The position numbers and the translations under genes are program-made. A stretch of 64,000 nt of DNA from assembly GCF_016903815.1 (NCBI RefSeq), contig NZ_CP069973.1. One strand, given 5' to 3'. Source of the stretch: Escherichia coli (GTDB lineage Bacteria; Pseudomonadota; Gammaproteobacteria; Enterobacterales; Enterobacteriaceae). A model generated the notes under the pieces. The model was not told the DNA's origin and did not search any database. It saw only the letters and a list, made by a program, of their open reading frames with translations. This document shows, in pieces, positions 56,365 to 60,290 of the stretch; the stretch's first letter is position 1, and the number at the start of each line of letters is the position of its first letter.

Positions 56365-58341
56365 TTACTCATCTTCAAGATAAGTATAACCGTACAAACC
56401 TGCCTCGAACTCTTCAAGGAACTGTTGTTGCAGTTCAGCATCAAGATCGGTTTTCTTCACTTGATCGCGGAACTGGGTTAACAGCGTTTTCGGATCGAGC
56501 TGTACATATTGCAGCATGTCTGCCACGGTATCGCCTTCGTCAGACAGTTCTACTTCTACGCTACCGTCAGGGAACACGAACACGTCAACCGCTTCGGTAT
56601 CACCGAACAGGTTGTGCATATTGCCAAGGATCTCCTGATATGCGCCGACCATAAAGAAACCGAGCATCGGCGGATTCTCTGGATCGTACTCCGGCATTGG
56701 CATTGTCGTGGCAATACCATCACCATCAATATAGTGGTCGATAGCACCGTCAGAGTCACAGGTAATATCCAGCAGCACAGCGCGACGTTCCGGCACTTGA
56801 TCCAGCCCTTCCAGCGGCAGAACCGGGAACAACTGGTCGATCCCCCATGCGTCCGGCATTGACTGGAACAGCGAGAAATTGACGTACATTTTGTCCGCCA
56901 TACGTTCCTGCAGTTCGTCGATTATCGGACGATGCGCACGGTTTTGCGGATCCAGTTGCTTCTGCACTTCATGGCACATGCTCAGATAGAGTTGTTCTGC
57001 CCATGCACGTTCTTGCAGGCTAAAGGTGCCGGAAGAGTAGCCGATATGAATGTCGTGCAGATCCATCTGACTGTCGTGTAACCATTCACGCAGAGAACGG
57101 CGAGTTCCCGGTTCGTGCATCTCCTGCCAGGTTTCCCACATGCTTTGCAGCGCGCGCGGCGCATCTTCTGCAGGCGCGGTCGGCACCGTGTATTCGTTAC
57201 GTTCCACGCCGATGATATTAGACACCAGCACGGTGTGATGCGCAGTCACCGCACGACCCGATTCGGTGATTACCGTCGGATGCGGCAGACCGTTTTCTTC
57301 ACACGCATCACCAATCGCCCAGATGATGTTGTTGGCATATTCATTGAGGCCGTAGTTTACGGAGCAGTCAGACTGCGAACGGGTGCCTTCATAGTCCACG
57401 CCCAGACCGCCGCCGACGTCGAAGCACTGAATATTGACGCCCAGCTTGTGCAGTTCCACATAGAAACGCGCCGATTCACGAACGCCTGTGGCGATATCGC
57501 GAATATTCGCCATCTGCGAACCGAGGTGGAAGTGCAGTAGTTGCAGGCTGTCGAGACGCCCGGCTTCACGCAGGGTTTCAACCAGTTGCAGTACCTGAGT
57601 CGCAGCCAGGCCGAACTTCGATTTTTCCCCGCCGGAGGACTGCCATTTACCCGAGCCCTGCGAAGCCAGACGTGCACGCACGCCCAGACGAGGAACGACA
57701 TTCAGACGTTCTGCTTCATCCAGCACAATGGCGATTTCTGACATCTTCTCAATGACCAGGTAGACCTTGTGGCCCATCTTCTCGCCAATTAATGCCAGGC
57801 GGATATATTCGCGGTCTTTATAACCGTTGCAGACGATGACGCTACGGGTCATGCCAGCATGTGCCAGCACCGCCATCAACTCTGCTTTCGAGCCTGCTTC
57901 CAGTCCCAGCGGTTCGCCCGAATGAATCAGGGACTCAATCACGCGGCGGTGCTGGTTAACTTTGATCGGATAAACAAGGAAGTAATCGCCGTTATAGCCG
58001 TAGGATTCCCGCGCACGTTTGAACGCGGCGTTAATGGAACGCAAACGGTGCTGCAGGATCTGTGGGAAACAGAACAGTGCAGGCAGACGCTGACCCTGTG
58101 CTTCACGAGTTTTCACTAACTGCGCGAGATCGACGCGAGCTTCCGGGACGTCCGGGTCCGGGCACACGCTGATGTGGCCCAGCTCGTTAACGTCATAGTA
58201 GTTATTGCCCCACCAGGCAATATTGTAAGTACGCAGCATCTTGCTGGCTTCCTGGGAGCTCATTGCAACCTCCTGCATGGAGCGTAGTACACCGTGTTCG
58301 CCCGCTGACGAAGGCAAACCCATAGACATGTCGTCAGACAT
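56365..58341 (-). CDS. speA: Biosynthetic arginine decarboxylase; start at [12 protein letters not shown]
   Basis: 658-aa PLP-dependent Orn/Arg/DAP decarboxylase family protein. Confidence 0.95.
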
Positions 58342-58349
58342 AGCGAACC

Positions 58350-58481
58350 TCAAATTATTTTATTAAGTGTAAAACAGTTAACGACTATCGCAGCCTGGAA
58401 CTGCGATAACAACCCATAAGCACATGGATTTTCCAGCAGTGTATGCTGACGCTCCGACTGCGCAACCGGTTTCTTTTTCAT
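58350..58481 (-). CDS. yqgB: Small protein YqgB (43 aa: [43 protein letters not shown])
   Basis: Short ORF immediately upstream of speA on the same strand, found by direct translation; matches recalled K-12 yqgB; below ORF-track cutoff. Confidence 0.55.
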
Positions 58482-58616
58482 AACATTATTAAGCACATAA
58501 CCGAACGTAAGTGTGACAGTTCGGCGAAACCACGAGAAAACTCTTGTTTTTACAAGAGCGCCCTTGTTCAGTCCTCAGTAACTGTAACCAGCTCTTGAAT
58601 CCTGAGAAGCGCCGAG

Positions 58617-58832
58617 ATGGGTATAACATCGGCAGGTATGCAAAGCAGAGATGCAGAGTGCGGGGAACGAATCTTCACCAGAACGGTGAGACAGGTTAAG
58701 CAGCAGACAACGGTTCATTATTTCGTATCACCTCCACGGCCGCCTGTTAAGACGAACCCACAAGCCAAAACTCTGATTTCAACCCGGCTGGAAGTGGCAA
58801 CACGAAAGAAACGTCGTGTGCTTTTTATTTAA
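58617..58832 (+). CDS. yqgC: Hypothetical small ORF (K-12 yqgC-like, 71 aa); coding status doubtful
   Basis: ORF-track entry [24 protein letters not shown]...; basic, low-complexity; positional equivalence to K-12 annotation only. Confidence 0.3.
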
Positions 58833-59095
58833 GCCGCGCGCCGCGTTTTATACCCCACAATGGCAGAAAATTGCAAAAGATAAATACGCAGAATGCCGGC
58901 ATTGTCAGGAAAAATTTCCAGCCACGTTTTTAACAGAATGAGACACGATTCAAAAAAAAGTGGAAATCGGGTGAAGAATTGACCTAAAATAGCCATCCAG
59001 ATGTTAATCCATCCATACCGATTAACACTCAGACTGCCAGTGTTTTTAACCTGCAGAGTCGTGGTAGGATCCGCTACCACAGAAAATCCACACAA
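58829..59095 (-). CDS. yqgD: Hypothetical small ORF (K-12 yqgD-like); coding status doubtful
   Basis: ORF-track entry [23 protein letters not shown]... overlapping the metK upstream region. Confidence 0.3.
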
Positions 59096-59135
59096 CAGTT
59101 TGAGCTAACCAAATTCTCTTTAGGTGATATTAAAT

Positions 59136-60290
59136 ATGGCAAAACACCTTTTTACGTCCGAGTCCGTCTCTGAAGGGCATCCTGACAAAATTGCTGACCA
59201 AATCTCTGATGCCGTTTTAGACGCGATCCTCGAACAGGATCCGAAAGCACGCGTTGCTTGCGAAACCTACGTAAAAACCGGCATGGTTTTAGTTGGCGGC
59301 GAAATCACCACTAGCGCCTGGGTAGACATCGAAGAGATCACCCGTAACACCGTTCGCGAAATTGGCTATGTACATTCCGACATGGGCTTTGACGCTAACT
59401 CCTGTGCGGTTCTGAGTGCTATCGGCAAACAGTCTCCTGACATCAACCAGGGCGTTGACCGTGCCGATCCGCTGGAACAGGGCGCGGGTGACCAGGGTCT
59501 GATGTTTGGCTACGCAACTAATGAAACCGACGTGCTGATGCCAGCACCTATCACCTATGCACACCGTCTGGTACAGCGTCAGGCTGAAGTGCGTAAAAAC
59601 GGTACTCTGCCGTGGCTGCGCCCGGACGCGAAAAGCCAGGTGACTTTCCAGTATGACGACGGCAAAATCGTTGGTATTGATGCTGTCGTGCTTTCCACTC
59701 AGCACTCTGAAGAGATCGACCAGAAATCGCTGCAAGAAGCGGTAATGGAAGAGATCATCAAGCCGATTCTGCCCGCTGAATGGCTGACTTCTGCCACCAA
59801 ATTCTTCATCAACCCGACCGGTCGTTTTGTTATCGGTGGCCCGATGGGTGACTGCGGTCTGACTGGTCGTAAAATTATCGTTGATACCTACGGCGGCATG
59901 GCACGTCACGGTGGCGGAGCATTCTCTGGTAAAGATCCATCAAAAGTGGACCGTTCCGCAGCCTACGCAGCACGTTATGTCGCGAAAAACATCGTTGCTG
60001 CTGGCCTGGCCGATCGTTGTGAAATTCAGGTTTCCTACGCAATCGGCGTGGCTGAACCGACCTCCATCATGGTAGAAACTTTCGGTACTGAGAAAGTGCC
60101 TTCTGAACAACTGACTCTGCTGGTACGTGAGTTCTTCGACCTGCGCCCATACGGTCTGATTCAGATGCTGGATCTGCTGCACCCGATCTACAAAGAAACC
60201 GCAGCATACGGTCACTTTGGTCGTGAACATTTCCCGTGGGAAAAAACCGACAAAGCGCAGCTGCTGCGCGATGCTGCCGGTCTGAAGTAA
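59136..60290 (+). CDS. metK: S-adenosylmethionine synthetase; start at [18 protein letters not shown]
   Basis: 384-aa protein matching MetK (GGGAFSGKD motif). Confidence 0.97.

Follow-up and report, generated by a model that had tools for sequence, protein, structure and literature searches.

In the secM-secA system, a ribosome positioned near the end of the upstream open reading frame (ORF) opens a hairpin that masks the start of the downstream gene. In speFL-speF, ornithine is sensed through ligand-dependent ribosome arrest, which blocks the loading of Rho, and in mdtU-mdtJI the upstream ORF (uORF) responds to spermidine. The speA gene encodes the enzyme that opens the arginine route to putrescine and spermidine in Escherichia coli and related bacteria. 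It is repressed by polyamines and by cyclic AMP, and to our knowledge the cis elements of this repression are not defined. The present analysis concerns the leader of speA within a 64,000-nucleotide (nt) stretch of E. coli DNA (contig NZ_CP069973.1; hereafter the window), together with the small ORFs yqgB, yqgG, yqgC and yqgD that lie between speA and the divergent metK gene. The locus is best explained as a uORF-coupled, Rho-sensitive translational leader that controls speA, a reading to which a probability of roughly 0.6 is assigned. In this arrangement, the most likely role of yqgB is to turn on the translation of speA, not to supply an independent protein. No described mechanism for the speA leader was found in a literature search.

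The genes at this chromosomal locus follow the order speB-speA-yqgB ... metK-galP, and the region is kept in 5425 of 5426 complete E. coli genomes at an identity of at least 95% (all but one at 99% or more). RefSeq annotates speA, yqgB, yqgG, yqgD and metK here, while yqgC is no longer annotated. Conservation was assessed in the 80 closest speA loci, which come from about 35 genera of Enterobacteriaceae and comprise 78 distinct sequences. The divergent order of speA and metK is kept in the 77 loci with a locatable metK start, where 633-1039 nt (in most cases about 780-920 nt) separate the two genes. The ORFs, their translation and the Rho-dependent RNA ends have already been published or annotated, and the idea of a uORF for the yqgB-speA pair has been raised before. 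New here are the conserved placement of a stop codon within a hairpin, a structured leader that has no Rfam family and the finding that yqgB shows no peptide-level selection.

The original prediction had described a 43-amino-acid ORF that ends 8 nt upstream of the speA start on the same strand, and the sequence agrees: yqgB runs from an ATG at 58481 to a TGA at 58352-58350, and exactly 8 nt (GGTTCGCT) separate its stop codon from the speA ATG at 58341-58339. The UGA overlaps the Shine-Dalgarno (SD) sequence of speA (GAGG, 58351-58348), and yqgB itself lacks a recognisable SD. Both the ATG and the open frame of yqgB are present in all 78 sequences, with lengths of 42 to 91 codons. The frame stays open even in lineages that carry insertions of 51-140 nt in the C-terminal part of yqgB, and the usual stop is kept there. 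The stop codon occupies one of two positions. It is a TGA located 8 nt before the speA ATG in 58 of the 78 sequences and a TGA within ATGTCTGA, located 8 nt into speA and overlapping codons 2-3, in the remaining 20; the yqgB frame is never that of speA. Across the yqgB stretch there are no in-frame stops, compared with 279 and 184 in the other two frames, which are interrupted in 78/78 and 75/78 sequences, respectively. An arrangement of this kind far exceeds what chance would produce. Conservation of the frame in other enterobacteria had been named beforehand as the point on which the status of yqgB would turn, and it was found throughout. When 20 diverse YqgB sequences were used for a profile search, 136 proteins matched, typically 43 or 48 amino acids long, which corresponds to the two stop positions. 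The named matches belong to Enterobacteriaceae except for two records, P0107 and P0122, labelled Vagococcus sp. WN89Y and Stenotrophomonas sp. MY15. Because all other named matches are from Enterobacteriaceae, the assemblies behind these two records are probably contaminated or mislabelled.

Both stop positions of yqgB lie in the 5' arm of a predicted hairpin, H17, in which the last part of the speA SD would be sequestered along with the primary AUG and codons 1-4 (Table 1). According to RNAalifold and pair counts, H17 consists of 16 pairs with 99% of cells paired, and 11 of these pairs never vary; its predicted energy in E. coli is -21.2 kcal/mol. Third codon positions of speA that are at least 95% conserved are concentrated at the 5' end of the gene, with 12 of 19 in codons 1-19 vs 31 of 181 in codons 20-200 (Fisher p = 3.9e-5). 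INRI-seq has confirmed two speA starts: the annotated ATG and, in the same frame, an ATG at codon 27 from which a shorter, cytoplasmic isoform is made (INRI-seq study). The internal start lies outside H17, and it is conserved as ATG in 80/80 loci and preceded by GGAGG in all but one.

The entire leader, which is 498 nt long and contains yqgG and yqgB, is unusually constrained. In the same loci, 54% of leader sites reach at least 90% identity vs 29% of speA third codon positions, and stretches of 40-55 nt hardly vary at any codon position. RNAalifold analysis of 58 leaders yielded 105 consensus pairs, 20 of which show compensatory double changes, and explicit counting over these 105 pairs found 97.3% of pair cells paired. 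The number of double-change cells was 200, compared with 67 +/- 9 in column shuffles (0 of 500 reached 200) and 31-56 in controls with slid partners. The covarying helices are H3, H6, H7, H9, H11 and H13. On the opposite strand, several of the invariant G:U pairs would turn into A:C mismatches, and the structure is therefore attributed to the speA-sense RNA. Conservation due solely to promoters or transcription-factor sites on the DNA was considered for the leader and rejected on account of the compensatory changes and the strand-specific G:U pairs. A search of Rfam 15 gave no match in the region 57800-59600 on either strand at E <= 1. Energy-based z-scores (-2.4 for the full leader and -1.37 for the start hairpin) were too weak to build on, and conservation and covariation were therefore used instead. 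Likewise, a consensus scan for promoters and terminators returned counts no higher than those of shuffled sequences, and only its matches to the hairpins H9 and H3 were useful.

Individual helices coincide with the translation signals of the two uORFs. Helix H4, invariant in 57-58 of 58 sequences, pairs an anti-SD with the SD region of yqgG and encloses the hairpin H6 (58755-58740), in which five of six pairs show double changes. H10, which is conserved to the same degree, encloses both the hairpin H11 and the SD-less start codon of yqgB. H9, a terminator-like stem-loop between yqgG and yqgB, directly abuts H10 and is nested in an invariant outer helix. Covariation is observed in H9 (UA40/CG16 at one pair, UA25/CG10/AU3 at another) as well as in H11 (AU36/GC11; CG52/UA4). 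On the + strand, the 5'-proximal hairpin H3 (58800-58819, followed by GCTTTTTATT) resembles an intrinsic terminator whose T/A-run is conserved across genera. Such an element could stop antisense transcription on the yqgC strand before it reaches the speA promoter; none of the Term-seq entries listed around the locus is a + strand 3' end (Adams 2021 tables). Lineage-specific insertions into the leader were observed in Citrobacter (L011, L016), Klebsiella/Raoultella (L018, L023, L026, L030, L033), Kosakonia (L036, L050, L077) and in the loci L029, L055 and L078. They include about 245 nt inside yqgG in C. portucalensis and about 45 nt between the arms of H4 in Klebsiella, and some of them resemble palindromic elements of the REP (repetitive extragenic palindromic) type.

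The strong conservation of the yqgB frame is not accompanied by a detectable signature of its peptide. Identity to E. coli at codon positions 1/2/3 amounts to 96/99/66% for speA, 84/76/72% for yqgB and 77/79/71% for yqgG, and codon-position identity in the same loci revealed no protein-like periodicity over the leader overall. The pooled ratio of nonsynonymous to synonymous differences (pN/pS) for yqgB is 0.81 in frame vs 0.91 and 0.75 in the shifted frames. Neither this ratio nor the codon-position periodicity in the 78 sequences detected selection on the YqgB amino-acid sequence beyond the constraint at the nucleotide level. Since the in-frame ratio is no better than that of the shifted frames, it is the act of translation, not the peptide, that appears to be selected. 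The conserved motifs of YqgB coincide with arms of RNA helices (KKP with H10, QH..LL with H14, and YGLLS/AIVV with H15/16), and the variable residues fall in RNA loops. The proposal that yqgB is a leader or coupled small protein therefore holds in part: the ORF is conserved in frame and stop, translated and suitably placed for coupling, and a function of the peptide is disfavored by the pN/pS values.

The second uORF, yqgG, is antisense to yqgC and preceded by a strong SD (GGAGGTG, 58735-58729). It is matched over its full length by the family PF23505 with 129.9 bits (cut-off 27), its ATG is present in 77 of 78 sequences, it mostly comprises 43-51 codons, and SPA (sequential peptide affinity)-tagged YqgG protein has been detected (Weaver 2019). 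The view that only yqgB looks like a real small protein consequently overlooked yqgG, which is also annotated by RefSeq. Pooled pN/pS is 0.64 in frame vs 0.88 and 0.94 in the shifted frames, a modest signal of peptide-level selection that is visible as synonymous third-position changes in ..DSRAG. In 72 of the 74 sequences with a locatable H9 motif, the yqgG stop codon precedes H9 by 0-18 nt, most often by 7 or 0 nt. The ..SRAG ending was considered as a SecM-like arrest motif and rejected, because RAG is followed by a variable residue, never by a conserved Pro. At codon 45 (58584-58586), within the variable C-terminal tail, a single residue is polymorphic: the present strain reads ..RAGYSY and the other Escherichia sequences examined read ..RAGNSY. 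The yqgG-yqgC pair is listed as a divergent excludon by ExcludonFinder.

The hexamers of the speA promoter, as read from the sequence, are located in near-invariant blocks, and the leader's 5' end, at about 58839, was taken from a primer (GCGCGGCTTAAATAAAAAGC) used for cloning of the speA 5' untranslated region (Adams 2021, PMC7815308). The discriminator that follows the TATAAA box (ACGCGGCGCGCGGC, 58838-58852, - strand) is near-invariant and very GC-rich, a sequence feature typical of promoters under stringent control by guanosine tetraphosphate (ppGpp) and DksA. A Rho-dependent RNA 3' end was mapped at genome position 3085854 with a Rho score of 3.09 and flagged "uORF" (Adams 2021, PMC7815308). 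It corresponds to window position 58284, a conversion that was checked against the sequence, and sits between the two speA starts. A second mapped 3' end, at about 58725, is located just 5' of the yqgG ATG (Adams 2021, PMC7815308) and directly 3' of H4. Both ends are thus found just 3' of predicted stable helices. Rho dependence of the speA leader was observed in a lacZ reporter (rhoR66S) and in northern blots, a yqgG-yqgB-speAB transcript was inferred, yqgB-speA was listed as a candidate uORF-regulated pair, and yqgB was counted among the experimentally validated small ORFs (Adams 2021, PMC7815308). The yqgB start codon was captured by INRI-seq in a cell-free system (INRI-seq study). In Salmonella, deletion of yqgB lowers the mRNAs and enzymes of speA and speB, and polyamines rescue the phenotype (Cai 2026).

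Table 1. Coordinates of features in the speA-metK region, given as window positions.
Feature	Position	Strand	Details
yqgB, 43-codon uORF	58350..58481	-	Sequence, RefSeq, family profiles, open-frame conservation
Predicted hairpin H17	58296..58348	-	58348-58331 (GUUCGCUAUGUCUGACGA) pairs with 58311-58296 (speA codons 11-16)
speA primary start codon, long isoform	58339..58341	-	ATG in 80/80 loci; published INRI-seq peak
Internal speA start, codon 27, short isoform	58261..58273	-	SD GGAGG 58273-58269, ATG 58263-58261
Rho-dependent RNA 3' end	58284	-	57 nt into speA, 12 nt 3' of H17; published
yqgG, 47-codon uORF	58575..58718	-	RefSeq CDS, PF23505, tagged protein, conservation
Predicted helix H10	58468..58531	-	GGUUUC 58531-58526 pairs with GAAACC 58473-58468 (yqgB codons 4-5)
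Predicted helix H9, terminator-like stem-loop between yqgG and yqgB	58532..58567	-	GCUCUUG-loop-CAAGAGU, then UUUUCUCG
Predicted helix H4	58729..58796	-	Anti-SD CACUUCCA..CG (58796-58785) pairs with yqgG SD region CGUGGAGGUG (58738-58729)
Predicted hairpin H3, 5'-proximal in leader	58797..58821	-	Covariation GC33/AU11
speA promoter	58839..58876	-	TTGCAA 58876-58871, N18, TATAAA 58852-58847, GC-rich discriminator; read from sequence
yqgC ORF, 71 amino acids	58617..58832	+	Antisense to leader; intact only in Escherichia
yqgD ORF, 88 amino acids from TTG	58829..59095	-	Over speA and metK promoter regions

In the proposed model, a sigma-70 promoter at about 58839 would drive transcription of speA with a folded leader that carries the translated ORFs yqgG and yqgB, and H17 would lock the primary speA start. 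Because yqgB ends inside the 5' arm of H17, a ribosome terminating on yqgB would melt this hairpin and allow initiation at the primary AUG by translational coupling. If yqgB were left untranslated, the primary start would stay closed, and the 5' portion of the speA RNA would be exposed to Rho, leading to termination. Trimming of the terminated transcript back to H17 would then match the published 3' end. As the codon-27 start has its own strong SD outside H17, the leader should specifically control the long SpeA isoform and read-through into speAB. Translation of yqgG probably relays to yqgB, given that yqgG stops near H9, that H9 abuts H10 and that H10 would clamp the yqgB start. The SD of yqgG is predicted to be masked by the invariant anti-SD in H4. 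Polyamines, arginine supply or acid may serve as the physiological signal. A more far-reaching and distinctly tentative version of this model sees an uncatalogued, Enterobacteriaceae-specific riboregulator of about 500 nt with a three-step relay, in which the yqgG SD would be unmasked, termination on yqgG would open the yqgB start and termination on yqgB would open the primary speA start. It would answer a signal such as polyamines, arginine/Arg-tRNA supply or acid, and through this relay it would set how much Rho-dependent read-through reaches speAB and in what proportion the long and short SpeA isoforms are made.

Several points weigh against such a coupled leader. Because H4, H10, H15/16 and H17, the helices that matter most, do not vary, they have conservation but no covariation to support them. 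The minimum free energy fold of the full leader pairs the speA start region differently, and H17 of E. coli is not exceptional in comparison with shuffled sequences (z = -1.37). The conserved synonymous sites at the 5' end of speA could also reflect other constraints, for instance the alternative yqgB stop or the composition of the initiation region. No 3' end has been reported at the terminator-like hairpin H9. The Salmonella yqgB deletion data come without complementation or a polarity control (Cai 2026). Finally, the yqgB start went undetected by in vivo Ribo-RET, according to the authors of the INRI-seq study, which implies low translation in lysogeny broth; coupling may therefore matter only under other conditions.

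Other explanations of the locus have been weighed against the same observations. YqgB could be a functional, trans-acting small protein that is placed next to speA merely for operon co-expression. The acid phenotype was reportedly first described in Hobbs 2010, a paper that Cai 2026 cites. A role in trans would fit the strong matches of yqgB to curated family models, namely Pfam PF11036 (109.6 bits, E = 5.6e-32, cut-off 24, residues 1-43 of 43) and NCBIfam NF033844 (91.4 bits, cut-off 35), as well as the conservation of the motifs KKPVA, YGLLS and AIVVNCFTL, the listing of the protein as experimentally validated (PMC7815308) and the acid and colistin phenotypes of deletions together with the claimed binding of a small molecule (Cai 2026). 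However, the conserved motifs are those that coincide with the invariant helix arms H10 and H15/16, in-frame pN/pS is no lower than in the shifted frames, and the C-terminus varies freely in frame and length (42-91 amino acids) while the position of the stop relative to speA is fixed. The decrease in speA/speB upon deletion and the rescue by polyamines are what a cis effect predicts, and no complementation was reported (Cai 2026). In addition, overexpression of YqgB in the Ando 2025 screen gave an aggregation-type heat-shock response, not the cold-shock-like response of the arrest type. A function in trans is therefore regarded as unlikely.

An improbable alternative is a structured RNA switch that is read by a trans factor, such as a small RNA, a protein of which CsrA is an example, or a metabolite, with the ORFs being incidental or serving as a shield against Rho. 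The near-invariant blocks with their many conserved helices, the lack of protein-like periodicity overall, the invariant anti-SD:SD pairing of yqgG with its implied opening and the low initiation at yqgB in vivo would all suit such a switch. Yet it leaves unexplained why the yqgB frame remains open through the large insertions and why its stop is always found no more than 8 nt from the speA ATG, and neither an Rfam match nor a ligand or factor has been identified. Finally, the small ORFs could be chance ORFs without a role in a conserved double-promoter region, which fits yqgC and yqgD as well as the presence of the speA and metK promoters in the intergenic DNA. For yqgB and yqgG, this view is excluded by the published evidence for translation of both, by the absence of stops in the yqgB frame as opposed to the other frames and by compensatory changes and G:U pairs that indicate selection on the RNA and not on the DNA alone. 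As an account of the whole locus it is very improbable, and for yqgC and yqgD it is supported.

The two longer ORFs were found at the places where they had been noted (58617-58832 on the + strand and 58829-59095 on the - strand), and the assessment that they look non-coding was borne out. Intact yqgC is present in 6 of 78 sequences and intact yqgD in 4 of 78, all of them from Escherichia; elsewhere, yqgC contains 1-7 in-frame stops and yqgD up to 9. Neither ribosome density nor a tagged protein was found for YqgC (Weaver 2019), and yqgD has no match in Pfam or NCBIfam. These observations suggest that neither of the annotated genes yqgC and yqgD is in fact a gene. As a protein, yqgD remains annotated by RefSeq and its Prokaryotic Genome Annotation Pipeline (PGAP), in an 83-amino-acid version with a GTG start at 59080, and yqgC has a Pfam family of its own (PF17430, matching at 133.9 bits) despite showing neither conservation nor translation. 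Within the yqgD ORF, a near-invariant block adjoins metK (58960-59035; TTAATCGGTATGGATGGATTAACATCTGGATGGCTATTTTAGGTCAATTC on the - strand). This block probably represents the metK promoter, with octamers in tandem that resemble MetJ boxes, and the consensus scan placed a promoter-like site on the + strand at 58961-58990.

With a coupled speA leader as the model, both the old question of speA feedback control and the interpretation of yqgB mutants can be put to a direct test. The phenotypes published for such mutants (acid stress, virulence, colistin) would be re-read as probable cis effects on speAB, which matters for work that treats YqgB as a drug target (PMC13159126). The ORFs in the window are full-length members of the YqgB and YqgG families (PF11036, NF033844, PF23505). 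The names of the former, "virulence promoting factor" for PF11036 and "acid stress response protein YqgB" for NF033844, imply a protein function that the evolutionary pattern described here does not support.

In comparison with the known systems, the speA leader shares with mdtU-mdtJI a Rho-dependent 3' end that follows a validated uORF and the association with a polyamine-related gene (Adams 2021, PMC7815308). The mechanism of mdtU has been tested experimentally, whereas speA is a candidate (PMC7815308), and the speA leader is much longer and contains two uORFs and a predicted start-site hairpin. With speFL-speF and the orf34 element of Salmonella speF (PMC6386406) it has in common a gene for a polyamine-biosynthetic decarboxylase, a long structured leader, a translated small ORF and Rho-dependent premature termination. 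No obvious sequence motif is common to the speFL and speA leaders, and in place of an ornithine-sensing arrest the latter has a stop codon that falls within the start site of the downstream gene. In geometry it resembles secM-secA, where the upstream ORF ends by a hairpin that sequesters the downstream initiation region and a ribosome at its 3' end exposes the start, as is proposed for yqgB and H17. YqgB carries no known arrest motif and gave no arrest-type response in the Ando 2025 screen. While SecM relies on the arrest peptide FxxxxWIxxxxGIRAGP, which is relieved by secretion, opening of the speA start is proposed to require only plain termination of the yqgB ribosome within the hairpin arm.

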